From the IMG/VR virus record IMGVR_UViG_2541047946_000018, positions 1 to 38,363 of that record: a stretch of 38,363 nt of DNA; one strand, 5' to 3'. The DNA is from a virus (taxonomy: Duplodnaviria > Heunggongvirae > Uroviricota > Caudoviricetes). Shown one piece after another: positions 1-38,363 of the stretch; within the stretch, counting starts at the first letter, position 1, and every line of letters begins with the position of its first letter. The notes beneath the pieces were generated by a model. The model did not search any database. It worked only from the letters and a program-made list of their open reading frames with translations, and had not been told where the DNA came from. Position numbers and translations under genes: made by a program.

Positions 1-183
1 CGTACAGCCAATCTTTGGAGCAATGGAACAAATTGTCGCCCATTGTGAGTCATATTCGCCCTGACTTTCCAGAACCATACGGACTGCCCGTTGACGGACT
101 TCAGGGGAAAAACGAGTATTTTTAGTCATCCTGTTTACCTCTTTCTCAGGAAGTTTAGTCTCCAGGATTCCCGGGGCGGTTCA
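1..183 (-). mobile_element. IS629-like (IS3 family) insertion sequence, partial copy running off the left window edge; terminal inverted repeat ends at 183
   Basis: Bases 1..183 are the exact reverse complement of 11808..11990, the left end of the full IS copy, including the terminal TGAACCGCCCCGGG repeat and the orfA start. Confidence 0.85.
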
Positions 184-1076
184 GCTTGCCACGCGGCCCA
201 GTCTATTGACTGAGATAATGAGTCAACAAAAGGATATAAGGATTTTGCTTCAGAAATTGAAGAAAACCTCTCAGATAATGGATGATATTTCCCATCCCCA
301 ATTGCTCCGAATTGTTTTACATTTAAGAAAAGAGCATTGTTTTCATGCTGAGTTATAGTTACAGCCCCGGCAAATGGCTGCCTTACACCAATTAATGCAT
401 CACCTTTTCCTTCTCCTGCGCTAGATAATTGCAGAAGAACATCTGCGGCACTGCCAGAAGGCACAGGTACACCTATAGGTTTACCATTGACGATACCAAT
501 GACAGTTTCTTCCAGTAAATGAACTGGAGGAAGTGGTTCAATAAAATTATCTGGAACCCGTAATGTCCTGTTAATATTCACATTAACAATATTATCAACA
601 TAATTCTTTGTAGCTGCATCTTGAGGCTTGGAAGGATCGCGCAAATTGCGGATGTAATTATTCAAGGCATCGTAATAGTTTGCCACAAATGATGGTTTGC
701 GCAGCGCCAGGCTAAACCAACTGCGGACTTGCTGTATCAGCATCGTCAGCTTATCTAACGCGTCTTCATGCACCTCAGCGAAAAACTTTCCCTGATTTCG
801 CAGATCAGTTTCCTGCGTAACCGGTAGCTCTCGTGATATAGAAATCTGATAACCGTTAGCTAACGCCTTCGACAGAATTACATTACCGCCATTATATCCA
901 CCAGCCCCAGTGACAGTGTAATCAGTATCAAGAGCCAGCACAGCGATATTTTCGTCAAGGTCAACCACCTGTACTGCCAGATCAGATTCCTTGAAAACCC
1001 TAAAGGTATACGGAAATGATGTCGTAACGCCGTTACCTGTGTATTCGTTGTGGTCAACTTCGGTTGAGACCGTCAT
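184..1076 (-). pseudogene. T7 gp17-like tail fiber/tailspike, N-terminal about 297 codons only; C-terminus replaced by IS sequence
   Basis: ATG at 1076 with GGAG RBS. N-terminus (YTGNGVTTSFPYTF...TDYTVTG) resembles the T7 gp17 adapter domain; a pectate-lyase-type beta-helix start motif (FGAIGDGK) follows. The frame runs into the IS at 183 and stops at 135 inside it. Confidence 0.7.
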
Positions 1077-1179
1077 GTTAAATCTCCAGATAGTCGCAGC
1101 ACCCGTTGCGCCGCATATCTGGTTATTCTATTACCTGAAAAACCACATATGGATAGAAAGGGTGTGAATACGAACAGAT

Positions 1180-1196
1180 ATTACCTTTCAGGTAAT
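1180..1196. promoter_or_regulatory. 17-bp palindromic operator ATTACCTTTCAGGTAAT (consensus ATTACC-N5-GGTAAT)
   Basis: Perfect inverted half-sites; same motif as the tripartite site between cro-like and cI-like genes. Associated AACCACATA element at 1142..1150 and half-site at 1128..1133. Confidence 0.6.
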
Positions 1197-1234
1197 TTGC
1201 AAAACGTGCTGGATAGCAAACAAATTATTTGATA

Positions 1235-1250
1235 CTGTATAAATATACAG
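1235..1250. promoter_or_regulatory. LexA (SOS) box CTGTATAAATATACAG overlapping the -10 region of the downstream plus-strand gene
   Basis: CTGT-N8-ACAG with AT-rich spacer, one mismatch from the E. coli consensus CTGTATATATATACAG; 21 bp upstream of ATG 1272. Confidence 0.7.
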
Positions 1251-1271
1251 TTATTGCATGGAGAAGATAAG

Positions 1272-1529
1272 ATGCAGCAGTATCACTATCCACTGGAAGA
1301 CGGATTTACCGAAAGGATTCACACGCCGGGAGGCGTCAGGTCACTGGTGGAGGGATCGCACTTGATGAAATTACTCCGGGATCTCGATAAGGATGGATTT
1401 AATGTCGATGGCCCACTTGCCGAACTGACTGCACTGATTAACTACGTCACCAGCTCACAGATGTCTATGCGGGATCTGCAAACACATCTCGACTATTGTG
1501 CCGAACAATTACGAAAACAAACCCGGTAA
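1272..1529 (+). CDS. Small antirepressor-like protein, homologous to the C-terminal domain of the Bro-N protein at 2913..3605; likely SOS-induced
   Basis: ATG 1272 preceded by GGAGAAG RBS (the ORF track starts at TTG 1254). About 40 percent identity by eye to the Bro-N C-terminus (LMxLL..L..DG..V.G..AELT....Y.......LRD[IL]QTH..Y). Confidence 0.6.
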   Translation: MQQYHYPLEDGFTERIHTPGGVRSLVEGSHLMKLLRDLDKDGFNVDGPLAELTALINYVTSSQMSMRDLQTHLDYCAEQLRKQTR

Positions 1530-1553
1530 ATTTAAAGGCCGCAAGAGCGGCCA

Positions 1554-2060
1554 TTAACAGTCGTAAAATTCCGGGTCCCACAAACTTGCATCGCGCGGCA
1601 TGGATTCTAAATTTTTCAGCCGCAAAATTCTGTCACACTCGACAAGAAGTTTTTGTTTTTGTTCGTCAATTTCTACTTTTTTGTGTGCTGGCTCATCCCA
1701 GTAATCCAGAAGAAACGCATGTCGCTCAGACGTTACAAGATAAATCACATACACATCACTGGTTGGTATTTTTTTATGCTTGTTGGTGGTCTTGTCTTTC
1801 TTCCCGGATGCCCAGTTTTTCCAGCATTGTTCCGTACCGCTCTCACCAAACTTGTCAGTATAGTTTCCGATGTTTACGTGAACGTGGCGTATGTGATATT
1901 CCAGCATCTCTTTCGGTGGATCCCGAAACAGAGTGTCCTTTCCGAAATCCTTATGATGACCGTAGCGCCAGTGATCTATGAACGCGTTTTTGATAGGTAT
2001 TAGCTCAGGGTCCTTCCCAAAAATTCCAGGGTGAACCAACCCCTGGAATTTATTCAGCAT
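1554..2060 (-). CDS. YafO-like putative toxin (mRNA interferase family), paralog A
   Basis: ATG 2060 overlaps the upstream gene's stop by 11 nt. Shares HWR[YH]GHH, GKDTLF, HVHVNIG, TEQCW and YWDxPAH motifs with the paralog at 4049..4561; resembles E. coli YafO from memory. Confidence 0.55.
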   Translation of the reverse strand: MLNKFQGLVHPGIFGKDPELIPIKNAFIDHWRYGHHKDFGKDTLFRDPPKEMLEYHIRHVHVNIGNYTDKFGESGTEQCWKNWASGKKDKTTNKHKKIPTSDVYVIYLVTSERHAFLLDYWDEPAHKKVEIDEQKQKLLVECDRILRLKNLESMPRDASLWDPEFYDC

Positions 2061-2469
2061 CGTCGTAGAGCTCCTGAGCCATATCTTCGGCAGTGCGTGC
2101 AAACATCCTGCGCGAGATTGCATGAGATTTCTCGACGGACATCTTTGGGACCTCATGCATAACATTTTTGGGAGTTGTGTAATAGCCTATTACAATTTTC
2201 ACACCTGACTTATGATTAATATCAGCATAATATACTTCTTGTTCAGACGTTTCACGACGAACATAATCTGCCAGTTTTCCACATTTAAATTCCCCTCCCT
2301 GATGTTTTAAAATCTCCTCAACTGCACTATTTTCAGTGAAATACCGAATAAGAAATTTCTGTCCAGTCTCTTCAGCATGAGGTATAACAGTATTATTGGA
2401 AGCCCGAACAATGGCCTTACTCAATATTTCATGGTCTTTATTTTTTTCTGATTTCCTCAAATGCTGCAT
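2050..2469 (-). CDS. Small basic partner protein of YafO-like paralog A (putative antitoxin), acidic C-terminus
   Basis: ATG 2469 with GAAGAGAG RBS (track ORF starts at TTG 2505). N-terminal region similar to the partner at 3736..4062; not YafN-like. Confidence 0.45.
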   Translation of the reverse strand: MQHLRKSEKNKDHEILSKAIVRASNNTVIPHAEETGQKFLIRYFTENSAVEEILKHQGGEFKCGKLADYVRRETSEQEVYYADINHKSGVKIVIGYYTTPKNVMHEVPKMSVEKSHAISRRMFARTAEDMAQELYDDAE

Positions 2470-2504
2470 TACTGTAGCTCTCTTCGTGTTCACGGGCCCC
2501 CCCA

Positions 2505-2521
2505 ACTACCTCTAGGGTAAA
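2505..2521. promoter_or_regulatory. Operator-like site ACTACCTCTAGGGTAAA (one mismatch), just downstream of a candidate sigma70 promoter for the minus-strand module
   Basis: On the minus strand TTGCCA-18 bp-TAGAAT precedes this site, 36 bp upstream of ATG 2469. Confidence 0.45.
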
Positions 2522-2629
2522 CATTCTATCGAAAGTATACGCATACTGGCAAAAAAATAGGCAGGTATTTTCTGAAATGGGATCAATCAAACCACATAGG
2601 GTTGAAATAACGTGAGTTATGCATTTATT

Positions 2630-2646
2630 ATTACCTTTGCGGTAAA
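2630..2646. promoter_or_regulatory. Operator site ATTACCTTTGCGGTAAA with AACCACATA element at 2590..2598
   Basis: Near-consensus palindrome in the divergent intergenic region between the minus-strand module and the Bro-N gene. Confidence 0.55.
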
Positions 2647-2723
2647 TTTACATCGCACTCCTCTTGTGCCATAGTAATCGGGCACTGGCAAAATCCAGTG
2701 CCGGGATTGGTCTCCCGGATTAC

Positions 2724-2870
2724 TACAGAGGCACATATGCCGCATAAGCGGTTTTTTTATGTGTAAAGCGCACCTATTCTATGGTGGGCTGTGTGGGGGC
2801 ACCGAAAGGTGCGCCGGGTTCCTTTGTAGCCGGTAAGACCAACTCTGCACAGTTCACCACCATCTGATTG
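2724..2870 (+). repeat. Conserved non-coding element, copy A (Bro-N leader), homologous to 22221..22360
   Basis: Shared blocks GGCACAT..GC..CG.ATA.GCGG, GGGGCACC, GTAGCCGG and TTCACCA in the same order and similar spacing in both copies; several hairpins (GGCACTGG/CCAGTGCC, CCGGGA/TCCCGG, CCGC-ataa-GCGG followed by T7). Confidence 0.4.
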
Positions 2871-2912
2871 GTCTCAGCGGTGGTGATTAACCTAACTACA
2901 AAGGTGATCGCC

Positions 2913-3605
2913 ATGAATACCAAACCTTCCATCTTTTCCTTTGAGTCATCCTGCCAGATCCGTATGTTCATGATTGACGGAGAACCTTGGTTTGTCACCA
3001 AAGATGTGTGCAATGCTTTGAATATTGATGTTACACAAGCGAGAAAACTTGATAAAAAAGGCTGGAACAAAAAGGGGCTGTATTCAATACAGACCCCTGG
3101 TGGAATACAAGAACTATCCATCGTTTCAGAATCAGGTCTCTACATCCTTATTCTGCGTTGCAAAGAGGCAATGACTGAGGGAACGAGAGCATTCAGATTT
3201 CTTGAATGGGTTACAGGTGAGGTTCTTCCTCAGATCCGCCGCACCGGAAGTTACATTAAAAACTCGCTCCCGCAGGAAGAACGCATAAAGATGGTTGCCG
3301 ACCAGGTAGCCAACGCCACAGCATCAGCAGTGATGCAGGCAATGAAGATAGAGAACAAAACCTACAGCGCCCCGCTGAAGCCCGGCTACCGTAGCCTGAT
3401 TCATTCTCCGTCTGGTGTTCTCGGCCTGACGGAGAACTCACTGCTGATGAATCTGCTGAACCAGTTACAGGAAGACGGGCACGACGTATCGGGCGCGGCG
3501 GCGGAGCTGACCACCATGTTCTGCTACATCGTTGGTGTGAGCAAATGCCTGCGTGATATCCAGACGCACGCGGAGTACATCAACGACAAGGCAGGGTTCT
3601 TCTGA
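2913..3605 (+). CDS. Bro-N domain antirepressor-like protein
   Basis: ATG 2913 with AGGTGA RBS. N-terminal Bro-N signature (IRMFMIDGEPWFVTKDVCNALNI); C-terminal domain homologous to the 1272..1529 product. Confidence 0.7.
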   Translation: MNTKPSIFSFESSCQIRMFMIDGEPWFVTKDVCNALNIDVTQARKLDKKGWNKKGLYSIQTPGGIQELSIVSESGLYILILRCKEAMTEGTRAFRFLEWVTGEVLPQIRRTGSYIKNSLPQEERIKMVADQVANATASAVMQAMKIENKTYSAPLKPGYRSLIHSPSGVLGLTENSLLMNLLNQLQEDGHDVSGAAAELTTMFCYIVGVSKCLRDIQTHAEYINDKAGFF

Positions 3606-3614
3606 CAGAACGGC

Positions 3615-3640
3615 GGCACAGGGATGTGCCTTTAAATAAT
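3615..3640 (+). terminator. Possible intrinsic terminator after the Bro-N gene
   Basis: GGCACA-ggga-TGTGCC hairpin followed by TTTAAATAATT. Confidence 0.3.
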
Positions 3641-3677
3641 TCTGTACAGATTGCAGACTGTGGGTGAATAGCGTACT

Positions 3678-3694
3678 ATTACCTTAAAGGTAAA
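3678..3694. promoter_or_regulatory. Operator site ATTACCTTAAAGGTAAA overlapping a candidate promoter (TTGCAG-17 bp-TACTAT)
   Basis: Palindrome 42 bp upstream of ATG 3736. Confidence 0.55.
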
Positions 3695-3735
3695 CCTGTT
3701 TTTATTTTATACCTGTAACTTACCGGAGATTAAAG

Positions 3736-4062
3736 ATGACAAAACTTGGATTCGTGATGAGAGGTCCGGTAAGAAGCGGAACTCATGCAAAGCGTAGCAA
3801 GAGTCGTATTTTTACTGGTAAGGTTGTAGCACGTAAATCAGCTATTGGCTCGTTCAATAGTGAAAATGCGGCATTGCGCCATATTTTTATCAGCACAAAG
3901 CCAAGAGCATCCGCTGATGTGCATACAATGTCTATTCCTATCACAAAGAATATAAAGCGGATAAAAAAGCTCTCATCTGCAGAATCAAAAGAGATATCTT
4001 TCCGCCAGCTTAACTCATTAGAAACGCATATGAAGGAAGAGGAATTCGATGTTTTTGAGTGA
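3736..4062 (+). CDS. Small basic partner protein of YafO-like paralog B (putative antitoxin), acidic C-terminus
   Basis: ATG 3736 with GGAG RBS; stop overlaps the downstream start by 14 nt. Confidence 0.5.
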   Translation: MTKLGFVMRGPVRSGTHAKRSKSRIFTGKVVARKSAIGSFNSENAALRHIFISTKPRASADVHTMSIPITKNIKRIKKLSSAESKEISFRQLNSLETHMKEEEFDVFE

Positions 4063-4561
4063 GTATAGCGGGAAGGTTATACCTACTGGTGAGTTTAAAA
4101 CTGATGACTTTCTGATTTCGCTAAAAGATGCTTTTAAACAACACTGGCGTCATGGTCATCATCCTGATCTGGGAAAAGATACTCTTTTTGAAAGACCAGA
4201 GGAAGTATTAGGCTTCCATCTCAGAAAGGTTCATGTCAATATTGGTGAATATGCATCATATTCATACTCATGTACTGAACAGTGTTGGGATGAGTGGTCA
4301 TATGGATTGATTGATGAACAAGGAAATTACAGGCCAAAACCAACCAGTAACGCATATCTCATATATGCAGTCAATGAAATAAGAGATGCAGCCTTACTAG
4401 CTTATTGGGACCCGCCCGCACACACCAAAGCTAACGCAAAAGTTTGGATGGATTCCGTATTGAATTTCACAAAATTATTTCATGAACGAACGAATACAGC
4501 TCCACTTAGTAGAAATGTTTATCCGTGGGATTATTCGTACAAATCCAAAAAGCCTGCATAG
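4049..4561 (+). CDS. YafO-like putative toxin, paralog B
   Basis: ATG 4049 with GAAGGAAGAGGAA RBS; same motif set as paralog A. Confidence 0.55.
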   Translation: MFLSEYSGKVIPTGEFKTDDFLISLKDAFKQHWRHGHHPDLGKDTLFERPEEVLGFHLRKVHVNIGEYASYSYSCTEQCWDEWSYGLIDEQGNYRPKPTSNAYLIYAVNEIRDAALLAYWDPPAHTKANAKVWMDSVLNFTKLFHERTNTAPLSRNVYPWDYSYKSKKPA

Positions 4562-4642
4562 TAGTTTTTTATGGACGAAACAAAAGTCAGTGCTACACTC
4601 ATTGACGCCACATTGAGGTGGTTTATAGATGGAAATTTCACA

Positions 4643-4804
4643 ATGAAAAAAGCATTTGCTGCACTGTTCGTTTTGTTGTCTCTGGTAGCTTCAACTCAGG
4701 CCTTTGCCGGTCGTTGTCAGCACGACAGCGACACTGCTGCTGACGGCTCCCGCTGCGGTGGGCGTTCTGCGGATTCCCGCCCGGGTGGCGGTGGCATTCG
4801 TTAA
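4643..4804 (+). CDS. Possible small secreted peptide (53 aa), third gene of the paralog-B operon
   Basis: Canonical Sec signal MKKAFAALFVLLSLVASTQAFA; no terminator between 4561 and this ORF; terminator immediately after. Confidence 0.35.
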   Translation: MKKAFAALFVLLSLVASTQAFAGRCQHDSDTAADGSRCGGRSADSRPGGGGIR

Positions 4805-4810
4805 AAACAA

Positions 4811-4832
4811 GGCCGCGAAAGCGGCCTGTTTG
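4811..4832. terminator. Bidirectional intrinsic terminator between convergent genes
   Basis: GGCCGC-gaaa-GCGGCC hairpin flanked by AAAAACAA upstream and TGTTTG downstream. Confidence 0.65.
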
Positions 4833-4833
4833 A

Positions 4834-5685
4834 TCACTGTGCAGTTTTCGCTGATCGATTTTCAGCTCTAAATTCAAGAACCGTTTCAATATTTCTTTCC
4901 TTCAGCATATCAATAACATTTTTATTCATTTGACTATCACTGGTTAATAACTGGTAAACGTTGCTTCTCTCTTTATCAGAGTTTTCTTTAACAGCTGCTT
5001 TGCATGCCAAATGCTTATTGAAATTTTCTACATCGCTAGTACAGGAATTTACGGCTGCTGATGAAATATCAGACGCTGAAGAAACACCATCATCCAAACG
5101 TTTTATAGCATTTTCTATACATGAGTTAAGGGAATAAACGACAACTGAGCGATACCCTTCAGACGCACACCATTCTAAATTTCTTGAAGGATCGAGTGGT
5201 TTTACTTCGCTGGATTGAATTAACTTGTCAAAAACTGACTTATATTCAATCTGTTTTTTATCTATAGCCCATACTTCAGTAGCTGATTTATAATTCCCCG
5301 TATGCCTATTAACATCAAACCCATGTTTTATAAGCAAATCTGCCCATGAAAGATTTATTGATTCATTGTTATGAGGCCATTTTCCTGTCAGAACCGCCCC
5401 CATAGACCCCATATATCCGCCATATGATGGTATAGCACCATGGCTCAGTAACTTCTCAGCAACCACAGGGCAATTAATTACATAAGAGGCGTAAAGCCCA
5501 TTCCATAAAGCCCCTCTATAGTAATCGCCACGATTAGGTTCTTTTAAGTCGATAGCCTTTGATAATTGTTCACACGTTTTGCATGCATCAAAGTTATCCT
5601 TATTGCATTGCAATGAACTGGCAGCTGTAGGATTTACAGAGACTATTGAAAGCACTATGCCAAAAAACAAATTTATTTTTTTCAT
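4834..5685 (-). CDS. AT-rich moron: secreted protein with possible ankyrin-like repeats
   Basis: Signal peptide MKKINLFFGIVLSIVSVNPTAASS; ANK-like segments (LLSHGA, LLIKHGFDVN); low GC versus neighbours; starts 1 nt after the gp16-like stop. Confidence 0.6.
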   Translation of the reverse strand: MKKINLFFGIVLSIVSVNPTAASSLQCNKDNFDACKTCEQLSKAIDLKEPNRGDYYRGALWNGLYASYVINCPVVAEKLLSHGAIPSYGGYMGSMGAVLTGKWPHNNESINLSWADLLIKHGFDVNRHTGNYKSATEVWAIDKKQIEYKSVFDKLIQSSEVKPLDPSRNLEWCASEGYRSVVVYSLNSCIENAIKRLDDGVSSASDISSAAVNSCTSDVENFNKHLACKAAVKENSDKERSNVYQLLTSDSQMNKNVIDMLKERNIETVLEFRAENRSAKTAQ

Positions 5686-5686
5686 C

Positions 5687-8600
5687 CTATTTCATCTGTT
5701 CTTCAACTTTATTTAGTAATGGTGATATCGCCCACAGATTCTGAAAAGGTAGCATTTTACGGACAGCGTGGGTTTGCTGGCTGTCAAATTCTCCGTTAAG
5801 TACACCATTCGCAACCGTCGCGGCATCACCGCCAAGATCAAAGGTAGGACCAAGTAAAGCACCAATAGCATTACGACTCTGAAACCTTGATACCGGAGGC
5901 GCACCAAACATCGCGCCAAGACCAAACCTACCGCCGCTTATGTTCTCAACGGTATTCAGCGGCTCAGAGAGCCAGCCAAGCATTCCGCCCCGGTCGATCC
6001 CCTCTTTCACAAGGTTATTCCAGCTGTAGTCAATATCGCGACCGCTTAACTTCTGTTTCATCATATAGACCATTGAGCCAAGCGCAATCGTGCCAAGCGC
6101 ACCAAGATAGAATGCAGCATCGCCCTGCTGGATACCAGATACCAGCACCCTGTTATGCTGTGCGAAGATAAACGTTTTGAACTGCGTGATCATCTTCCAG
6201 CCTTCTTTACTAAAAAACAGCGGTGTATCACCTACGCCAGGCGTTACAATCACTGAGTCTACATCTTTCAGCACTGCAGACTGGAAAATCTCTCTAGCGA
6301 AACGGTCATCCCACAGATGACTATGCCCGGTTAACAGCCCGTCCATATCCTCTCCGTGCTTCCCGAATTGCTCCCCGATTCGGCGCAGAACATCTTCATT
6401 GATGCCGACCTGTGCCATCTTCCGCATTTCACTTTTGGAGAGCGTGCCACCAGCAGAAACTTGGCGAGCCGCGTCAAGTATCCTCGACTGCACTATCATC
6501 CCGGACCATGATTTAAGTGCGCTGTTCCACTGATTCATCAGCGTCCAGTTACCGAATTTCTGCGTCATCCAGTTCAGACCTCGCTCAGCGGCGCTTCTCC
6601 GGCTATAGGGGTCAGTAAGATCCGCTATAGCCTTTGTACGCGTAGACAGGACATAATCAAGCCCAACGGCCATTTCTCGCAAATCCCTGGTTGCAATTTT
6701 CACTGAGTCCATATTTTTAAGCATGCTTACCATTGGTCCGAGAGATTTTCTCAGGCCATGCTGCATCATCGGTCGCATCAGATCAGTTGCAGCGGAGACA
6801 GTCATTCCACCAAGCAAACGGAGGAAGTTAATATTCCTAGCAACTCGCCCGGCACGAACAAAGAAACTGCGTGGATCTTGAGGTGCACCGTAAGTACCAA
6901 GCAGTCGATCACGCATAGCCGTAATATCCCTAATATCAGCCTCCCGTTGCTTCTCAAGAACTGCACGTCGTTTAGGTGTTTTAGCCTCTTTTATTAGCCG
7001 GGTATATTCCTCACTAACCTGACGGATTTGCTCCCCCATATCTTTACGGCCAAACTGCGCAGTCAGCTCAATTTCTGGTGCCACCTGCCGGAGATAACTT
7101 TCCATGATGTAGTTAACATCTGATTCAAGAAAATCTTCTATACGCTCATCAGGAATAAGCAGCGTTCTGCTTTTAGTGAAACCAGCCCGACCAACGAGTC
7201 TCTCTGGGATAATATCGGCTGGTACAAGCCCGGAAGGTGCGCCTATTATTTTATTCACGATCTCGTCAGCAGCGTCCTCTGCTTCCTCTCGGGATAGAGG
7301 CTCCATCTGCTTCAGTGCTCGTTCGCGGCTTGCATTCAGCCTTGTGGTTGAATTTGCCCGTTTTTGCAGTCGGCGAAGCTCAGAACGATATTTCCGTGGA
7401 TTATCCAACAACTCCATATGACGCTGATAGACAGGAAGCTCACTCTTTGCCTGCGCTATATCATCAAGGCGTGTTTTAAGGTCAGAGCTTTCTTTCATCA
7501 TTCTTGCCTGAAGTTTTTCTGATGAAGTCTCGGCCAACTCTTTTTCTATTCTTGTAAGACGCGCCTGTGTGTCAGTCTCCTGAGATATAAGCTTATTTCG
7601 TTTATCCAGTTCTTCCATGAGTAGAATTTTTTTACCAGACCATTTCTCCGCTTCAGCGATTTCACTAGCGAGAGCATCAGCGCGCGGTGCCGATTCCTCT
7701 GCAGTTTTTAGCAATGAATTTATCCTTTCAATTCGCTGACCTGCTTTGTCAGCACCTTTGGCACTAATCCCTTGTATCCAGTTGGCAATTCGCCCTCTGA
7801 ATTCAGTGCGGTCGGAAAGTATCTTATCGAACTTATAAATGCGGGGAAGATAACTTTTCGCCGTCACGACATCGATATCCTCAGGAAGGATCCCCAGTTC
7901 CTGCATACGGGCTTTTGTGGTCTCGAAAATGGGGCGGATTCTAGCGGCTGCTTGTGAAACCTCAGGAATATCACTCTGATCACCACGGCGCATAGCCATG
8001 CCAACAGCTTCATTGAAATCAATAAAGTTCATCCTCTTCACGCCGCGGGCGCTAACAGATTTGCTGTACTGCTGGTAAGCATCACGAGTGGCTTCCATCT
8101 GCTTATAAAGCATGGCGTCGTATTGCTTAATCTTAGTCTCGACTGCCGTAAACGTAGCCAACCCCTCATCATTTTTGGCGAAGAAATAGTTATTTTCGGC
8201 AAGCTGCTGGTTAATCTGACGGGAGACAAGAGATGGTGATTGCGCCAAGCGGCCAGCAGGAGTGACACTCAACGTTTTGTTAGCAAGTCCAAGTCCAGCG
8301 AGCTGTTCCTGATCGAGTGTGGTATTGAAAACCTGAGCTGCACCAATGCTTTGAGGAGAATCCATACCTCGCAAATGATTACCTACTGAGTTAACCACTG
8401 CCTCGCGCGCGCCAGGTCCAGCAAGTAGCTGTGCACCAGCACCAAGGATCCCACCAACGAGAGCATCAACAACAACGTTCGATACGCTCTCCATCGGTGA
8501 GCGAGCTTCCTGAGTGGCCTGTAATGCGGCCTCTGAAGCAACACTGCCAGCAGCATTCGCCAGGGCAAAACGCCCGGCTGTTTCTGCAATACGACCGCCA

Positions 8601-9076
8601 CGAACGACAGCGCCGAACGGAATAAACATAGAAATCGCATTGAATGGATCTGCTAATCTCATTGCTACAGAAGAGACTGTACCAGCAAATCCCAAGCCTG
8701 AATTGTATTCCATGTCAGCTCTCTGCTGATCGATTCGATGTTTAATTGCCATTGTTTCTTCAGGCGAACCGGAGTTGATAAACGAATCTGCAAAATCTTC
8801 ATAGCCTTTAATATCTGCTGCATCGTTATCAAATGGGTTATATCCTTCAACCCTGTCAAACTGACTGAAAGGAGCACTGGCAATAAAGCTACCCAGCGTG
8901 TTATCTATACGAAATGCTGCTTGTCTAGACCTTTGAACGCGTTGATCACTGGTAAATGGGTTCACAGCAGAAAGCAAAGAAGGTGTTTCCATATAGAAAT
9001 TACTGTCATCAGGTGCTGCTATTTGCTGAATATCCTCGCCAAGCAACTCTTTAGGATCCTGTTCATATATCGGCAT
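5687..9076 (-). CDS. Internal virion/ejection protein, T7 gp16-like by position and size (1129 aa)
   Basis: Large ORF in the T7-like gene order after the gp15-like gene; coiled-coil-rich centre. Confidence 0.55.
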   Translation of the reverse strand: MPIYEQDPKELLGEDIQQIAAPDDSNFYMETPSLLSAVNPFTSDQRVQRSRQAAFRIDNTLGSFIASAPFSQFDRVEGYNPFDNDAADIKGYEDFADSFINSGSPEETMAIKHRIDQQRADMEYNSGLGFAGTVSSVAMRLADPFNAISMFIPFGAVVRGGRIAETAGRFALANAAGSVASEAALQATQEARSPMESVSNVVVDALVGGILGAGAQLLAGPGAREAVVNSVGNHLRGMDSPQSIGAAQVFNTTLDQEQLAGLGLANKTLSVTPAGRLAQSPSLVSRQINQQLAENNYFFAKNDEGLATFTAVETKIKQYDAMLYKQMEATRDAYQQYSKSVSARGVKRMNFIDFNEAVGMAMRRGDQSDIPEVSQAAARIRPIFETTKARMQELGILPEDIDVVTAKSYLPRIYKFDKILSDRTEFRGRIANWIQGISAKGADKAGQRIERINSLLKTAEESAPRADALASEIAEAEKWSGKKILLMEELDKRNKLISQETDTQARLTRIEKELAETSSEKLQARMMKESSDLKTRLDDIAQAKSELPVYQRHMELLDNPRKYRSELRRLQKRANSTTRLNASRERALKQMEPLSREEAEDAADEIVNKIIGAPSGLVPADIIPERLVGRAGFTKSRTLLIPDERIEDFLESDVNYIMESYLRQVAPEIELTAQFGRKDMGEQIRQVSEEYTRLIKEAKTPKRRAVLEKQREADIRDITAMRDRLLGTYGAPQDPRSFFVRAGRVARNINFLRLLGGMTVSAATDLMRPMMQHGLRKSLGPMVSMLKNMDSVKIATRDLREMAVGLDYVLSTRTKAIADLTDPYSRRSAAERGLNWMTQKFGNWTLMNQWNSALKSWSGMIVQSRILDAARQVSAGGTLSKSEMRKMAQVGINEDVLRRIGEQFGKHGEDMDGLLTGHSHLWDDRFAREIFQSAVLKDVDSVIVTPGVGDTPLFFSKEGWKMITQFKTFIFAQHNRVLVSGIQQGDAAFYLGALGTIALGSMVYMMKQKLSGRDIDYSWNNLVKEGIDRGGMLGWLSEPLNTVENISGGRFGLGAMFGAPPVSRFQSRNAIGALLGPTFDLGGDAATVANGVLNGEFDSQQTHAVRKMLPFQNLWAISPLLNKVEEQMK

Positions 9077-11790
9077 TATTTGCCTCCTGCGTATATATTG
9101 CTCGGAAGGTAATTGGCTGAACCATAACCGAATGGTTTGGTCAGATCTGGAGGAGTATATCCATCTTTATTGCTGAACTGCGGCAGCGGATTGCCTTCTC
9201 TCCGCACTCTAGCCTCATCAACACGCTGTTGCTGGAACTGAATGGTTTGCCTGTACATTGGAGATGTCAGCTGATCCGGCTTGAAACGAACAGGGAGACC
9301 ATTTTCTCCAATATAATTTCTCGGTTCTATCGCTCCGTTTGCGTCAGGCTGTAAAACCATAACAGCATAACTCCTATCCCTTGCCGTAAGGCCATCAGAA
9401 ACAAGTATTAAGTCCGTATCACTGCGAGGACCGCCAAAGGATTTTGATTTAAGCTCGCGTTTTTCCTGCTCCCACTGCCCCTGTATCCAGTTACCAGCAC
9501 CATTATTTACTCCGTACAATGCCTCAGGTGCATACTTCATAACCTCTGCTTTGCCATTAACCGTAGAAACTCCCCAAGTGGTTCTGATCATGGCATTGGT
9601 CATTTTCTCAGCCTGTTCTGCATCGCCACCTGTCTGTACAAAGTTAGCATCGTAAATTGTCTGGTAATCTCGCTGATAGGCCGCATTTGATTTTCCTGGA
9701 TCGGTAATATCCGGAGACCACGAACCAAAGGAAGTCAGACTGCTGGCGTTATTTTGTGCAGCAGTTGCCCTCGCCGCGACATATTTTTTGTCTCGCATGG
9801 CAGTGGAAAGCATCTGTTTCATTCGGTCATCCTGTTGGAACACCTGGCTGTAAGCCATATCAACAGCCTTATCCTCCGGCACGCCAGCGCGGGAATAATC
9901 GTAAACCTTGCCGTAAAATGCCATCGTACTTTTATCAAGTGTTGCCGCTGCCGCCGGATTATTATCGAATAACTGACCGTAGAATTTTGCCATCGGGACA
10001 ACCAGCGCAGGATCTCTTGATGTTGCTCCACTGTTAAGCATTGTTTTAACCTGAGTTGGTATCATGCCGCTTTTAGTTGTGACGGTGACCAGTGTATTGA
10101 TGCTCTGCGGATCAGATATGGAAAACGAAGGCGCGATATCCTGCGCGAAATAACGGTCTACCGCTGCCTGATTGTTTTTGTCGTTCGGGTCCAGCGGGAA
10201 GTTATTTTGCATTGAAGACACGAACCTGTTTCTTCCCTGCTGAATCTCCCACTCCCTATCCATCTCTTTAAATTTGGCCTGCATTTTCTCCCAGCGTTGC
10301 TGGTTAGCTGCAAATCCAGGAGCGTTTGGATCCTGTGGACGTAAACGTTCAAGAATGTCTTGTCGTCCTTCTGGAGTGAGGTCTTTAGCGGCACCAATGA
10401 CACCTCCATATTGTATCTGCGCCTGCATATCCTTCCACTTCATAGCGCCAATGCGCGGACCATTGGCCCGGATAAAATCGTCCTCAGAAGGTAACTTCTC
10501 AGGTTTCAATCCTTCATCAAGGGCTGAATATGCATCTTTAACTACGGTGCTAAGCTGGTCCGCATACTGCTGGCGGTACTGATTTCTCAGCTCATTAGCC
10601 TGCCTCAATGCCTGTATTTGCATTTGAGGGCTCATAGCATCAAATGCCGCATTGCCCGTATAACGCTTAGGTGAATCAAGGTTAGTTAGACCAAGGGCTG
10701 CCGAGATACCAGTTTCAAGCTGTTCGGTGCTATAAGGCATACTGCCATTTTCGTGTTTAATAATCCCAGCACATAAAGCAGCTAGTGTCTTTGGGTTAGA
10801 GATATCAAGCTGATCATTCTCCCCAACACCAAGCTCACCACACAATGCCCTAATATAAGCATCAGTATTATTACCATCACTAACCGGAGCATAGCGATTA
10901 ACAATCTCGCTAACGGTGTCATAGCCTTGACGCTGGTAAGACAACATATTTTTACCCAACGCGCGGATTCCATGCTCAGGGGTAGCAAACGTTGCAAAAC
11001 GTCCATCGCTACCGATCTGACCTTCCCACGGGTTAGATTTGCTCGCTTCAATATTACCAGGGTTATTATTACGTAAACCACGAGCATCCAATGAATTACC
11101 ATGTGATATTGCACGACTCACACCATCAAGATCCCCTGGCTCTCCATTAACCTGAAGAAACTCGTTGTATTTTTGAGCGATATTTCCTATCCATGCTTGC
11201 TGCCCCATTTGTTCCTTGAGCTGAGTTTTCTGCTGAACACGCCACTCATCAGGAAGCCCATGCGCATCAGCGTATTGATCAATAGATTCAAATCGCTGCT
11301 TGGCTAAATCGACAAATGCTTGGTTATCGCTATATAGCCCCGCAGACTGAGTGACAGCCAATGCATTTCCTGACAAATACGTTTGATCTTGGAATTGCTG
11401 AAACTGCCCAACTTCATATCGACGTGCCTGATTGTAATAAGACTGCATAGACTGCTGGAGTTGAAAGGATAATTTATTCCTTTCCTCACTTTCAGGAATT
11501 GAGCCTAATAATGCCTGAGCCCTTTCCTGCATATTTTTCATAACAGCGTCACTCTGACCAAGAGCGTTTTTACCCTGTTTAGAAATCAGCCCACTTTCAG
11601 GGTTGTTAATCTGGTCATCTGCAAATTGGTTAAATTGCAGTAACGCCTCCTGGGCCATAGCAACATTCGCTTTCTGCCTGGCTTCACCATATGCCACCGC
11701 ATACTGATCTGCGACATTCGCCAGCACCTGACCTGCTTGAGGAACATCGAAGATCTGAAAACCACCGGTTTGCACACCACGACTTTGCAC
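9076..11790 (-). CDS. Internal virion protein, T7 gp15-like by position (904 aa); GTG start 18 bp from the IS end
   Basis: ORF begins GTG 11790 with weak RBS; contains a conserved NNPGNI-containing domain of unknown function; the IS sits immediately upstream. Confidence 0.5.
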   Translation of the reverse strand: MQSRGVQTGGFQIFDVPQAGQVLANVADQYAVAYGEARQKANVAMAQEALLQFNQFADDQINNPESGLISKQGKNALGQSDAVMKNMQERAQALLGSIPESEERNKLSFQLQQSMQSYYNQARRYEVGQFQQFQDQTYLSGNALAVTQSAGLYSDNQAFVDLAKQRFESIDQYADAHGLPDEWRVQQKTQLKEQMGQQAWIGNIAQKYNEFLQVNGEPGDLDGVSRAISHGNSLDARGLRNNNPGNIEASKSNPWEGQIGSDGRFATFATPEHGIRALGKNMLSYQRQGYDTVSEIVNRYAPVSDGNNTDAYIRALCGELGVGENDQLDISNPKTLAALCAGIIKHENGSMPYSTEQLETGISAALGLTNLDSPKRYTGNAAFDAMSPQMQIQALRQANELRNQYRQQYADQLSTVVKDAYSALDEGLKPEKLPSEDDFIRANGPRIGAMKWKDMQAQIQYGGVIGAAKDLTPEGRQDILERLRPQDPNAPGFAANQQRWEKMQAKFKEMDREWEIQQGRNRFVSSMQNNFPLDPNDKNNQAAVDRYFAQDIAPSFSISDPQSINTLVTVTTKSGMIPTQVKTMLNSGATSRDPALVVPMAKFYGQLFDNNPAAAATLDKSTMAFYGKVYDYSRAGVPEDKAVDMAYSQVFQQDDRMKQMLSTAMRDKKYVAARATAAQNNASSLTSFGSWSPDITDPGKSNAAYQRDYQTIYDANFVQTGGDAEQAEKMTNAMIRTTWGVSTVNGKAEVMKYAPEALYGVNNGAGNWIQGQWEQEKRELKSKSFGGPRSDTDLILVSDGLTARDRSYAVMVLQPDANGAIEPRNYIGENGLPVRFKPDQLTSPMYRQTIQFQQQRVDEARVRREGNPLPQFSNKDGYTPPDLTKPFGYGSANYLPSNIYAGGK

Positions 11791-11861
11791 CTGGCGTCCG
11801 GATGTAGTGAACCGCCCCGGGAATCCTGGAGACTAAACTTCCTGAGAAAGAGGTAAACAGG

Positions 11862-12188
11862 ATGACTAAAAATACTCGTTTTTCCCCTGAAGTCCGTCAA
11901 CGGGCAGTCCGTATGGTTCTGGAAAGTCAGGGCGAATATGACTCACAATGGGCGACAATTTGTTCCATTGCTCCAAAGATTGGCTGTACGCCGGAGACTC
12001 TGCGTGTCTGGGTTCGCCAGCATGAGCGGGATACCGGGGGCGGTGATGGAGGGCTCACCACCGCTGAACGTCAGCGTCTGAAAGAGCTGGAGCGTGAAAA
12101 TCGTGAACTGCGCCGCAGTAACGATATCCTTCGCCAGGCTTCCGCTTATTTTGCGAAGGCGGAGTTCGACCGCCTCTGGAAAAAATGA
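11862..12188 (+). CDS. IS629 OrfA (IS3-family transposase N-terminal HTH part)
   Basis: [31 protein letters not shown]...; recognised IS629/IS3411-type OrfA; A6 slippery run at its 3' end. Confidence 0.85.
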
Positions 12189-13075
12189 TGCCACTGCTGG
12201 ATAAGCTGCGTGAGCAGTACGGGGTCGGACCGCTATGCAGCGAACTGCATATTGCCCCGTCAACGTATTACCACTGTCAGCAACAGCGACATCATCCGGA
12301 TAAACGCAGTGCCCGTGCGCAGCGCGATGACTGGCTGAAGAAAGAGATACAGCGCGTATACGATGAAAATCACAAGGTATACGGTGTGCGTAAAGTCTGG
12401 CGTCAGTTGTTACGGGAAGGTATCAGAGTGGCCAGATGCACTGTGGCACGTCTCATGGCGGTTATGGGACTTGCCGGTGTTCTCCGGGGTAAAAAGGTCC
12501 GTACGACCATCAGCCGGAAAGCCGTTGCCGCAGGCGACCGCGTAAACCGTCAGTTCGTGGCAGAACGACCTGACCAGCTGTGGGTGGCTGATTTTACTTA
12601 CGTCAGCACATGGCAGGGCTTCGTCTATGTGGCGTTCATCATTGATGTGTTTGCCGGATACATTGTGGGGTGGCGGGTCTCATCGTCCATGGAGACGACA
12701 TTCGTGCTGGATGCACTGGAGCAGGCGTTATGGGCCCGTCGACCGTCCGGCACGGTCCATCACAGTGATAAAGGTTCTCAGTATGTATCGCTGGCCTACA
12801 CACAGCGGCTTAAGGAAGCCGGATTACTGGCATCAACAGGAAGTACAGGCGACTCGTATGACAACGCGATGGCGGAGAGCATCAATGGTCTTTACAAAGC
12901 GGAGGTAATACACCGTAAGAGCTGGAAAAACCGTGCAGAAGTGGAACTGGCCACACTCACGTGGGTGGACTGGTATAACAATCGACGATTGCTGGAAAGG
13001 CTGGGCCATACTCCTCCGGCAGAAGCAGAAAAAGCTTATTATGCTTCCATCGGAAACGATGATCTGGCAGCCTGA
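12185..13075 (+). CDS. IS629 OrfB (transposase catalytic DDE domain)
   Basis: Overlaps orfA in the -1 frame; rve-type integrase core by family knowledge. Confidence 0.85.
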
Positions 13076-13135
13076 GTTCACAGATAAAATACTCTCCAGG
13101 AAACCCGGGGCGGTTCATAGTAGGAACAACAGGCA

Positions 13136-16646: not shown

Positions 16647-17251
16647 CAGGACAACCTCGCAATGGTAAACTCATCAACCGGTGGCTGTGGTTCCTGTGAT
16701 TCATTCTGGCTATGCGAGCCAGCACTAAGAATCACGCGATTGTACATATTGAGGGCAAACGTACCGAGGTCTGCATTCCCAGTCAGCGCCATGTTAATAG
16801 CTGCCGCAAGACGCCAGGCCAACGCCTCCATAAAAATGGCATCAAACATGTTCACATCTGTAACGCGAGAGACATACTTGAGCCATGCCTGAGGCTGGTC
16901 TGTGTAGATCAACTTTCCTGTTCCGTCGGTGTCTGCACCAACTTCGTACTGAACGCGCATTGCTGCTGTTGGATTGCGTACACCAGGAAGCATAATTTCA
17001 GTAATGCGCAGACAATCGGACGGGTACTGGTATGCGTATTCCCAGTCTGGCGGCGGATTGCTCGTATCTGCAAGCGCCACGCGTTTGGTAGCAAAGTTCC
17101 AGTCAAAATCAGAAAGCACAGCATCACGGCAGGCCTCAAAGTGCAGCGAACATTCCCCCGCTTCCTTGCTGGCTTCCGTCAGGCTGTTAATACTGCGGCT
17201 GTTGCCAATATTGGACAGCGCACGATTGCAGATCTCTACTACAGAGGCCAT
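16646..17251 (-). CDS. Tail tubular protein A (T7 gp11-like, 201 aa)
   Basis: Size and position; hairpin plus GGAG RBS upstream. Confidence 0.55.
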   Translation of the reverse strand: MASVVEICNRALSNIGNSRSINSLTEASKEAGECSLHFEACRDAVLSDFDWNFATKRVALADTSNPPPDWEYAYQYPSDCLRITEIMLPGVRNPTAAMRVQYEVGADTDGTGKLIYTDQPQAWLKYVSRVTDVNMFDAIFMEALAWRLAAAINMALTGNADLGTFALNMYNRVILSAGSHSQNESQEPQPPVDEFTIARLS

Positions 17252-17307
17252 AAGTTTCTATACTCCTGCAATAAAGGGGCCGAAGCCCCTTGTCTCATCC
17301 GCGAGGC

Positions 17308-17652
17308 TTACACGCCCAGTTCTTTACGCTTATCTGCGATCTTCTCGCGGAGCGTTTCTGCTTTGGCGTTATGGTGTGGCTTCTCGTTAAAGAGCAATTC
17401 GTACTCTTCACGGAGCTTATCCAGTTCACCATCATCTGACACATCGTTGATGATTTTGGTGCTGGTTGCTGCCATAGACACCTTTCCTGCTACCTTTGCT
17501 TTTGCCTGTCTGGCTGCATCGTTAACAGGTTCCAGTGCGCTACCAGGCTCACCTTCGTATTCGATTTCTGCCCCCTCCGGCCACAGAGTGTTATGGATAT
17601 GAGAGAGGCGCAGAACGCGGTATCTTGGTTTCTCACCTGACATCAATATCAC
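17308..17652 (-). CDS. Hypothetical virion-module protein (114 aa)
   Basis: Start overlaps the upstream stop; coding on the same strand within the structural operon. Confidence 0.45.
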   Translation of the reverse strand: MILMSGEKPRYRVLRLSHIHNTLWPEGAEIEYEGEPGSALEPVNDAARQAKAKVAGKVSMAATSTKIINDVSDDGELDKLREEYELLFNEKPHHNAKAETLREKIADKRKELGV

Positions 17653-22035: not shown

Positions 22036-22124
22036 ATCAATGACTCCGTACGCAATTAAATTATTACCAATTTAACCACATATGATTTATTTATCGTAGA
22101 AGGTTGACATTTAACGCGTGAATT

Positions 22125-22141
22125 ATTACCTTTCGGGTAAC
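22125..22141. promoter_or_regulatory. Operator site ATTACCTTTCGGGTAAC with adjacent TTGACA -35 hexamer (22104..22109), AACCACATA element (22074..22082) and half-site (22063..22068)
   Basis: Same cassette architecture as at 1128..1196, 2590..2646 and 29686..29764. Confidence 0.55.
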
Positions 22142-22220
22142 CAAAGAGCTCATTCCGGTTACTAACCTGACTGGCTTGTCGTTAAATTAAACAGGTGGAG
22201 TGAGCTTTTATTTTGAGCAG

Positions 22221-22360
22221 TACGGCGTATGGCACATGCGCCGATAGCGGTCTGGATACGTTTAAGGGGCACCCTCCCTTGCTCGGGCAAACGAACCAGG
22301 TAGCCGGAATGTGCAAGTCGAGCGGTTTTATTCCGCGCACGGGGATTCACCATCCCGGCG
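22221..22360 (+). repeat. Conserved non-coding element, copy B (leader upstream of tRNA-Arg), homologous to 2724..2870
   Basis: Same ordered sequence blocks as copy A; GC-rich; no ORF of 60 aa or more on the plus strand. Confidence 0.4.
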
Positions 22361-22462
22361 ATTCGGTGTGACGCCTCGGAAGAGACGAGGGTACAACGAT
22401 GAGAGCATTTATGGAGCCGCGACAAAGTGTGGCGCCTTAACAGGCTAAGTGCTCTCAGCGTT

Positions 22463-22539
22463 GTGGCATTAGCTCAGTTGGACAGAGCAACCGCCTTCTA
22501 AGCGGTTGGTCGCAGGTTCGAATCCTGCATGCCACGCCA
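22463..22539 (+). tRNA. tRNA-Arg (anticodon UCU), argU-like
   Basis: Cloverleaf: acceptor GTGGCAT/ATGCCAC, D-arm TAGCTCAGTTGGACAGAGC, anticodon stem ACCGC/GCGGT with loop CTTCTAA, T-arm GCAGGTTCGAATCCTGC, discriminator G plus CCA; close to E. coli argU. Confidence 0.9.
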
Positions 22540-22582
22540 GAATCACGCCTAAGGACCGTGATGCCAGAAGTTCCAGGTGCTT

Positions 22583-22627
22583 GGCGGTGATGGTTTCCCT
22601 TGAAGGACTATCACCGCCCTTTTTACA
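22583..22627 (+). terminator. Intrinsic terminator downstream of the tRNA
   Basis: GGCGGTGAT...ATCACCGCC stem followed by CTTTTT. Confidence 0.55.
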
Positions 22628-22702
22628 GCAGGACGCCATTGCGATGACTTCATGCTGTAAACCCGTACAGCCACGGAAGGCATAACTCATTGCTTCCAGT
22701 TC

Positions 22703-22727
22703 GCCCGGTTCGCCGGGCATTTTTTTG
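22703..22727 (+). terminator. Intrinsic terminator
   Basis: GCCCGG-ttcg-CCGGGC hairpin followed by ATTTTTTT. Confidence 0.7.
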
Positions 22728-22741
22728 CTTGATGACCGCAA

Positions 22742-22758
22742 ATTACCTTAAAGGTATA
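22742..22758. promoter_or_regulatory. Operator site ATTACCTTAAAGGTATA overlapping a TATAAT hexamer (22755..22760)
   Basis: Palindrome immediately upstream of the moron ORF. Confidence 0.55.
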
Positions 22759-22761
22759 ATC

Positions 22762-23580
22762 ATGAAAAACTTCAAGGTAATTAGCATGTTTGAATCGTTT
22801 AAAGAGCTGTTTTTATCTACTGCCAATACTGCCGTGAATCGAGCCAAAAACCCTGTGCTTGGTGCTTTTGTTATGTCCTGGTGCGCCTTCAACTGGAAAT
22901 CAATTCTTTATCTATTTTTTAGCAAATCAAACATAATAGATAAAATTTCATATATCTCAGATAACAGCACATGGAAAACTGTTATGTTTTATCCATGCTT
23001 ATCTGTAATTGCTATCTGCTGCCTATTACCATGGGTAAACAATATCATTAACGTATGGCAAGCAAAGCCTCTTGATAATAATGACTCAATCGAAAATCAC
23101 CTGAAGGCAAGAAAAATCCAGCGTGAAACCAGACTGCAGAGGTTATTGGCTAAAAAAGATGTTACATACGACAAAGTTAAGACTGGCGCGGAAAAAGACA
23201 TCCAAGAGATGAAAGAAGAGATTATTCGATCAAAGAATAGTATGGGGGAATTGACTGCTGAGTTGAAAGCTAAAGATGACGAATTGAGATCCGCCAGTGC
23301 TCAGTTAGCAGCTCTAAATCATTCATTAAAAGAGATATCGGAAACTCTTGGAAGAATGAATGAGGCATATAAGACCCTCCAAAATGATTTCGACGAATAC
23401 AAACTCAAATACCCTGAAAAATCTCAAATAAAAAGTCTTGCACTTGGCAACGGCCAAACAATTAGCAACTTTTTGGAGCAACACAACTTATCCGGATTAA
23501 AATCTGGTAAGCCAGACGTTTTTAATAACTTTGGTGTTCTATCTGGATTATCAGGTTTCGAGGATAAAAATAAAGACTAA
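22762..23580 (+). CDS. AT-rich moron: membrane protein with two predicted TM helices and a long C-terminal coiled coil; candidate superinfection-exclusion or abortive-infection factor
   Basis: Start ATG 22762 or 22786 (both have RBS); hydrophobic segments VLGAFVMSWCAFNWKSILYLFF and VMFYPCLSVIAICCLLPWV; low GC; stop codon overlaps the TerL stop tail-to-tail. Confidence 0.6.
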   Translation: MKNFKVISMFESFKELFLSTANTAVNRAKNPVLGAFVMSWCAFNWKSILYLFFSKSNIIDKISYISDNSTWKTVMFYPCLSVIAICCLLPWVNNIINVWQAKPLDNNDSIENHLKARKIQRETRLQRLLAKKDVTYDKVKTGAEKDIQEMKEEIIRSKNSMGELTAELKAKDDELRSASAQLAALNHSLKEISETLGRMNEAYKTLQNDFDEYKLKYPEKSQIKSLALGNGQTISNFLEQHNLSGLKSGKPDVFNNFGVLSGLSGFEDKNKD

Positions 23581-37106: not shown

Positions 37107-38363
37107 TTATTTATTACTGTCTTCCATCCACCTCTCAAACTTCGACGGGGAGAACGGAATCAGATCCGTATGCTCCCCGTTAATCCAGGAATCAATCATA
37201 TCGGCCCACTGCTGCAACATGTAGGCGCGCTGTCTGGCGTATTCCGCTTTGTTATATACGGCGCGCACACCTTTCTGCTCATGTGCCAGAGCCTTTTCAA
37301 TCCAGTCTGAAGGATAACCAGCCTCATGCAACAACGTACTTGCTGTACGGCGCATATCGTGTACGGTGAAGTCCTGAATATGCTCACCATCTTCATTTAT
37401 TATTTTCACCGTTCTGTCGATCAGAGAGTTCAGCGCGGCATTAGATAATGGCTTCCGGAAATTGTAACGACCAGGAACCAGATATTCACTTCCACCAGCG
37501 CACATCTGCAACCCAACCAATATATCCTGTGCCTGTTTAGGCAGGTAAATAACGTGCGCCCGGCTTCCCTTCATGCGGTCTGAAGGAATTGTCCATGTCC
37601 ATTTTTTAAAATCTATTTCATCCCACGTTGCATTGGTGAATTCGCCTTTACGAACCATAGTGATAAGCACCAGCTTTAAAGCCATTTTCATAGTGCCCAT
37701 AGCACCAATGGCATCCAGCGTGCGGAAGAACAGGCCAATTTCTTCTGGTGTCAGTGTTCGCTCTCGTGGTTTAAATATGGCGATAGACGAAGGTTTAATG
37801 TCAGCAGCAGGATTAAACAAACCATGACCACGGTCATTGGCATGACGGTATACGCTGCTGATGATCTCCCTGGCCTGCACTGCTGTTGCCCGGCCGCCGC
37901 GTTCGACAATCCGGTCACACAAATCACGAACCATCGATGTGGTAATTTCAGCCATCATTTTGTTACCAAGAACAGGAAGTATGTCACGGTCGATCACCGC
38001 CTGCTTCATTGCGCGGGTACTGTCAGCCAGGATGACGTGTTTCATATAACTGTCGGTATGTACCGCAAACGTCTCGGCACCACGAATCTTTTTGATACCG
38101 TCACGTTTAGCCGCAGCCGGTGACTGGCCTGCTTTAAGCAGCTTCTTTGCAGCAATCAGTTCTTCTCGCGCTTCTGCCAGGCTGATACCGTCACGCCCAT
38201 ACTGCCCAATTACCAGTGTTTCGCGGCGACCGTTGATACGGTAGTCATAGCGAAACGAGACCGTACCTGACGTAAGCACAGCTACATACAGCCCGTCACG
38301 ATCGGAGACCTTGTACAGTTTGTCCTGCGGCTTGAGGTTTTTTAATTTTGTATCGGTAAGCAC
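37107..38363 (-). CDS. int: Tyrosine integrase (P4/CP4-57-like), N-terminus at the window edge
   Basis: N-terminal LTDTKLKNLKPQDKLYKVSDRDGLYVAV arm-binding signature; ORF reaches the last base of the window. Confidence 0.85.
   Translation of the reverse strand: MLTDTKLKNLKPQDKLYKVSDRDGLYVAVLTSGTVSFRYDYRINGRRETLVIGQYGRDGISLAEAREELIAAKKLLKAGQSPAAAKRDGIKKIRGAETFAVHTDSYMKHVILADSTRAMKQAVIDRDILPVLGNKMMAEITTSMVRDLCDRIVERGGRATAVQAREIISSVYRHANDRGHGLFNPAADIKPSSIAIFKPRERTLTPEEIGLFFRTLDAIGAMGTMKMALKLVLITMVRKGEFTNATWDEIDFKKWTWTIPSDRMKGSRAHVIYLPKQAQDILVGLQMCAGGSEYLVPGRYNFRKPLSNAALNSLIDRTVKIINEDGEHIQDFTVHDMRRTASTLLHEAGYPSDWIEKALAHEQKGVRAVYNKAEYARQRAYMLQQWADMIDSWINGEHTDLIPFSPSKFERWMEDSNK

Follow-up and report, generated by a model that had tools for sequence, protein, structure and literature searches.

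Phage tailspikes are usually built from a conserved module that attaches them to the virion and, behind it, a body that can be exchanged. In epsilon15, phiV10 and TL-2011b, the gene order is internal virion protein genes, tailspike gene, lysis cassette. Insertions of IS629 into prophage and backbone genes of Escherichia coli were reportedly described by Ooka et al. in 2009 (as cited by Rump et al. 2011). Such insertions, for example in O157:H7, are well documented and are accompanied by target duplications of 3–4 bp (Rump et al. 2011, PMC3271280). We have analysed a stretch of viral DNA of 38,363 nucleotides (IMG/VR record IMGVR_UViG_2541047946_000018; Caudoviricetes), here called the window, in which a tailspike gene is cut by IS629. 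The locus is like the documented cases in the length of the element (1310 bp), its TGAACCGCC termini, the presence of orfA and orfB, both primer sites and a 3-bp duplication; prophage genes are typical targets of IS629 and inactivation is the typical result, as is the case here. In contrast to the O157:H7 insertions, the host lineage is that of UMEA bacteraemia/UTI isolates.

The window carries genes for the large terminase, portal, major capsid protein, tail tube proteins A and B and T7-type internal virion proteins, in the expected order, with an integrase gene at one end and IS629 at the other. The major capsid protein is 98.5–98.8% identical to those of phiV10 and TL-2011b (98.5% for phiV10). 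Typed by capsid, tailspike N-terminus and gene order, the prophage is an epsilon15/phiV10-type (Uetakevirus-like) podovirus of E. coli, and the window would comprise most of it, integrated beside yfgI. The tailspike gene has the same place in the gene order as in epsilon15, phiV10 and TL-2011b, and its N-terminal ~220–280 residues are 64–76% identical to theirs (phiV10 76%, epsilon15 70%). In contrast, the receptor-binding body is a different allele: past residue ~230 it shows no similarity to the epsilon15 and phiV10 proteins, its C-terminal part is an endosialidase-type chaperone domain, and the gene has been split into three. Over its first ~80 residues the beta-helix is like those of LKA1 gp49 and the phi297 tailspike (PDB 4RU4, 4RU5), with the shared motif FGA(I/V)GDG...HPLSERF...IDWAA.QAAI, but the likeness is confined to this N-terminal cap: the proteins differ in the remainder of the body, in the substrate and in the C-terminal domain. 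The C-terminal domain matches the chaperone of endosialidase-type tailspikes and fibres (Peptidase_S74; PDB 3GW6, 7Y5S), although in this prophage it lies outside the window and is separated from the beta-helix by a second type of element, IS2. The coordinates of all features are collected in the table.

Features of the window, of the scaffold that extends it (L002) and of the full-length tailspike
Feature	Position	Strand	Remarks
IS629 left end (IRL), edge copy	1..183	-	orfA start at 129; runs off the left edge of the window
Fusion ORF	135..1076	-	313 aa: tailspike codons 1–298, 15 IS-encoded residues, stop inside IS629
Native tailspike 5' part	184..1076	-	nt 1–893 of 2976; 99.9% identical to the YDC107 gene
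3-bp target site duplication	184..186	-	AGC on the coding strand; flanks both IS ends in L002
85-aa ORF	1272..1529	+	neighbour of the tailspike gene
isrK sRNA	2682..2758	+	Rfam match
C4 antisense RNA	2777..2864	+	Rfam match
Bro-N domain gene	2913..3605	+	directly downstream of isrK and C4
108-aa ORF	3736..4062	+	precedes and overlaps the 170-aa ORF
170-aa ORF	4049..4561	+	YafO_toxin Pfam match, E = 7e-4, below cut-off
Internal virion protein remnant ORF	9076..11790	-	matches phrog_1044 from profile position 13 onward
Second, complete IS629	11808..13117	+	1310 bp; TAG duplication at 11805–11807 and 13118–13120
tRNA-Arg(TCT) gene	22463..22539	+	between portal and large terminase genes
272-aa coiled-coil ORF	22762..23580	+	phrog_4780; between portal and large terminase genes
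Integrase gene	37107..38363		window end
IS2	L002 13883..15213		1331 bp; ~2.8–4.1 kb left of window start; cuts tailspike codon 815
Tailspike N-terminal domain	residues 1–129		PDB 28lx, N-terminal domain of Klebsiella phage depolymerase Dpo31
Tailspike beta-helix start	residues 251–336		PDB 4ru4, 4ru5 (LKA1 gp49, phi297 tailspike catalytic modules, first residues), E = 1e-13 to 1e-17
Tailspike C-terminal domain	residues 820–988		endosialidase-type intramolecular chaperone domains; Peptidase_S74 at 860–922

The tailspike reading frame crosses into the element at position 183, close to the window's left edge, gains its 15 IS-encoded residues and stops at a TAA at 135–137; the uninterrupted allele reads GGCAAGCTGCC at the target. 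Window 1..183 is the reverse complement of 11808..11990, the first 183 bases of the complete IS copy (100% identity by self-BLAST), and the terminal TGAACCGCCCCGGG ends at window position 183, which is the end of the IS. The preliminary description had called the edge copy inverted; this is correct with respect to the plus strand of the window and to the second IS629 copy, but the element points the same way as the tailspike gene. Two contigs that extend beyond the window, L002 and L007, show it continuing into orfA and orfB. An exact-sequence look-up recorded the identical 313-aa protein on 26 contigs, which include those of two NCBI assemblies, E. coli UMEA 3609-1 and UMEA 3592-1, and of several unrelated metagenome assemblies of different projects. 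The junction at codon 298 was present in none of the 5,426 complete E. coli genomes searched. The fusion ORF has a good Shine–Dalgarno sequence, GGAG, 8 nt before its ATG; scanned for promoters and terminators, window 1..1600 had no more sites than shuffled sequences, and none in the intergenic region 1077–1253.

Only the start of orfA of the edge copy lies inside the window, and the ORF and frameshift features of the element were read from the complete copy. The latter has ends TGAACCGCCCCGGGAATCCTGGAGA and TCTCCAGGAAACCCGGGGCGGTTCA and termini TGAACCGCCCCGGG...CCCGGGGCGGTTCA; IS629 is typically ~1310 bp long with terminal inverted repeats starting TGAACCGCCCCGGG. The complete copy encodes an orfA of 108 aa and an orfB of 296 aa, each matching NF033516 (NCBIfam IS3 family transposase), and contains an ALIL frameshift pseudoknot at 12143..12259 (120 bits). 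The IS629-specific primer sequences insideF and insideR, taken from Rump et al. 2011 (PMC3271280), have sites at 12066..12087 (no mismatch) and 12827..12846 (one mismatch), and none occurred by chance in shuffled sequences. The target duplications of both copies, AGC at the tailspike (via L002) and TAG at the second copy, are 3 bp long, within the reported 3–4 bp (PMC3271280). On these sequence features the label IS629 is justified; they are compatible also with the isoforms IS1203 and IS3411, which the primer sites do not separate. Two plus-strand ORFs of 296 aa, at 16712..17602 and 22690..23580, were considered as further copies of IS629 orfB and rejected: self-BLAST shows only one internal IS copy, and the ORF at 22690..23580 corresponds to a phrog_4780 protein.

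An intact tailspike gene is present in E. coli YDC107, where it is 2976 nt long and encodes 991 aa (WP_105955783.1); downstream come two holins, a GH19 endolysin, a DUF2514 protein and yfgI. Window 184..1100 is 99.6–99.9% identical to the chromosomal gene in 11 complete E. coli genomes, namely YDC107 (99.9%) and ten others. Residues 1–298 match positions 1–298 of a PHROG profile of 743 positions and 1–293 of one of 765 positions, many tailspike and tail-fibre PHROGs of 600–1084 positions are matched over their N-terminal part only (the first ~300 positions), and known phage tailspikes match the query from residue 1 to residues 186–298. The homologue search gave almost only partial proteins cut by contig ends, and full lengths were taken from YDC107 and the PHROG profiles. 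On that basis full-length homologues do not end near residue 300: the YDC107 protein has 991 residues and the profiles have 743–1084 positions.

In an alignment of 39 homologues, columns are invariant only as far as residue ~175, and from residue ~225 onward the sequences diverge. Domain boundaries were taken from sequence matches to solved structures. Residues 254–336 align to positions 18–98 of the 4ru4 chain (E = 1e-13); this chain is LKA1 gp49 without residues 1–167, and the beta-helix of gp49 begins at residue 181 (PMC5701251). Because the chain begins at gp49 residue 168 and the helix at 181, the FGAIGDGK motif would mark the start of the helix and the cut would fall ~45 residues into it. 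The preliminary description had placed the IS629 cut near the start of the beta-helix, and the position of codon 298 in this alignment bears that out. By these comparisons, the native 5' part encodes the conserved N-terminal virion-binding module (about residues 1–175), a linker of variable sequence and ~45 residues from the start of the beta-helix. From the FGAxGDG motif onward, the body is predicted by homology to be a right-handed, pectate-lyase-like beta-helix; PF12708 is matched by nine of the 39 homologues, and Pfam searches with the window protein and the full-length protein found no beta-helix family. An AlphaFold2 model of P0002, a 498-aa intact partial homologue, built from the 39-sequence alignment was unusable (mean pLDDT 39, pTM 0.25).

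The N-terminus had also been described as a T7 gp17-like adapter. In favour of this, PF03906 is matched at E <= 0.01 by 25 of the 39 homologues with the same N-terminus (best 4e-5); on the other side, the window protein scores 15.2 bits (E = 0.017) against a gathering cut-off of 25.2, the full-length protein gives E = 0.4, and an hhalign comparison of the N-terminal profile with T7 gp17 found only 40 collinear columns, which is not significant (P = 0.05). The resemblance to gp17 is thus weakly supported.

The remainder of the gene was found in the sequence to the left of the window. Scaffold KE702418.1 (L002; assembly GCA_000461395.1; 2.9 Mb) is identical to window 1..11076 over all 11,076 bases, which form the link between the two, and extends 10 kb beyond the left edge. 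Relative to the YDC107 gene, the order in L002 is tailspike nt 1–893, IS629, nt 891–2444, IS2 and nt 2440–2976, followed by holins, a GH19 endolysin, a DUF2514 protein, yfgI, yfgH and yfgG. The IS629 junction reads GGCA-AGC-[TGAACC...GGTTCA]-AGC-TGCC, a clean 3-bp duplication. The centre of IS629 in L002 is a scaffold gap of 1000 N, so that its halves are joined by the submitters' scaffolding, the AGC duplication and the continuity of the gene, and not by a continuous read. The 1331-bp element further on matches, at 100% identity, copies with the annotation 'IS3-like element IS2 family transposase', and its junction, AGA-ATCGG-[TAGACTGG...AAATCCA]-ATCGG-TCACG, shows a clean 5-bp duplication. 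IS2 lies between the beta-helix body and the Peptidase_S74 chaperone domain, and the start codon of the middle tailspike ORF is an ATG within the right end of IS629.

The other 693 codons thus lie directly past IS629; they are split by IS2 and contain no stop or frameshift. When both elements and one copy of each duplication are removed, the rejoined gene is a 991-aa reading frame of 2976 nt whose only stop is at its end; it differs from the YDC107 gene by 12 nt and 5 aa. Because it is still a perfect ORF without secondary damage, the insertions are probably recent. As read from the scaffold, no part of the tailspike gene has been deleted, and the IS629 event is a simple insertion. The receptor-binding or depolymerase part, which had been described as missing, is therefore present beyond the element, interrupted once. 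The suggestion to look left of the window for the 3' part proved productive, although this part is not displaced, as had been supposed, but follows IS629 directly; when the window was searched by BLAST with the YDC107 locus, no displaced 3' segment turned up in it.

The second IS629 was left unconnected in the preliminary description. It has independently cut the gene for an internal virion/transglycosylase protein of roughly 916 aa, after codon 6 (at about codon 7). Three complete E. coli genomes carry the rejoined empty site with 100% identity along 1008 nt.

Similarity between the window and the YDC107 locus (L001) is confined to 182..1552, at 99.3% identity, a segment with just the 5' part of the tailspike gene and the neighbouring gene of 85 aa; the remainder of the 12.9-kb locus has no match in the window. 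Because of this confinement, the tailspike cassette would be mosaic relative to the virion module. By eye and without statistics, the product of the 85-aa ORF resembles the C-terminal ~60 residues of the Bro-N protein, the common pattern being DG..V.G..AELT....Y...RD.QTH..Y. The segment made up of isrK, C4 and the Bro-N gene (2682..3605) sits between the tailspike and virion genes and looks like an antisense-controlled antirepressor module of the P1/P7 immI type. Beyond it, a YafO family toxin is annotated by RefSeq relatives in the region matching window 3736..4561, which is possibly a prophage-borne toxin–antitoxin pair. Elsewhere, the portal and large terminase genes have between them the tRNA-Arg(TCT) gene and the 272-aa coiled-coil ORF, both on the opposite strand, and this segment (22463..23580) looks like a moron; from 22056 to 22462 (roughly 400 nt) all ORFs are shorter than 90 aa and no Rfam match was found.

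The window ends inside an IS and is by itself silent on what follows, and its two inverted IS629 copies, 11.6 kb apart, could support an inversion. We therefore considered that the 3' two-thirds of the tailspike gene had been lost or moved by an IS-mediated deletion or rearrangement, for example by recombination between these copies. This is very unlikely and is largely refuted already: in L002 the IS is immediately followed by the remaining codons, the window contains no further part of the gene, and the AGC pair in L002 and the TAG pair in the window are both intact. An inversion would have separated the members of these pairs, and since each copy keeps its own matching duplication, no inversion has taken place between them. 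Still lower, indeed the lowest among the alternatives, is the probability that the IS at the window edge reflects a repeat mis-join, the gene being really intact. Copies of IS elements commonly break or mis-join contigs, and L002 has its N gap inside IS629. Nevertheless, the same IS junction is found in several independent metagenome contigs (L003–L011), one of which, L007, runs 980 bases into the IS, and the identical fusion ORF is on 26 contigs that include two NCBI genomes and independent metagenome assemblies; the junction is therefore not an artefact of assembly. Nor would a mis-join give a duplicated AGC and then the exact continuation of the gene past the IS.

An alternative of a different kind is that the interrupted state is itself of use. 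The 313-aa fragment retains the whole conserved virion-binding module (~1–175) behind its good ribosome-binding site, the allele occurs in many samples and the rejoined ORF is undamaged; the fragment might then be kept as a dominant-negative adapter, a 'blank' spike that poisons the assembly of related podoviruses such as superinfecting epsilon15-like phages, or the IS copies might serve as a reversible off-switch operated through an IS-excision enhancer. We regard either version as extremely unlikely. There is no sign of selection and the spread of the allele fits clonal inheritance, the promoter-like sites upstream are not beyond chance, the two further IS hits in structural genes of the same prophage look like decay, and restoration of function would take three precise excisions.

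We believe it highly probable that IS629 inserted at codon 298 of a gene that continues past the element and is cut again by IS2, the prophage decaying by simple insertions. IS629 would have transposed into codon 298 of the 991-aa tailspike gene, duplicating 3 bp (AGC), so that the product is now at most 313 aa: the virion-binding module, the linker, the first turns of the beta-helix and 15 residues encoded by the IS. The 693 codons beyond would specify what remains of the beta-helix, together with an intramolecular chaperone domain of the endosialidase type at the C-terminus, and this stretch would in turn be cut by IS2 at codon 815, with a 5-bp duplication. The second IS629 would split the start codon and first six codons from the body of the large internal virion (ejection/transglycosylase) gene. 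With adapter, enzyme body and folding chaperone on three separate ORFs, a functional tailspike trimer would not be expected to form. The prophage is thus very probably defective and unable to make infectious particles without help, a view that derives from the three IS insertions and agrees with what the preliminary description had proposed; a helper phage or excision of the IS elements could in principle rescue function.

In conclusion, both the type of event and the type of gene are already known, and the junction is present in public draft genomes and metagenomes. Its significance beyond annotation is small: the prophage should be scored as defective, with a tailspike split three ways and an ejection protein gene interrupted. 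The apparent loss of the receptor-binding domain is an effect of the window boundary together with an IS insertion, and not of a deletion. Prophage and host-range pipelines should accordingly rejoin tailspike ORFs that end at an IS or at a contig edge before specificity is called. The prophage appears to be decaying through insertion sequences, and the number of IS hits may serve as a quick marker of such decay.
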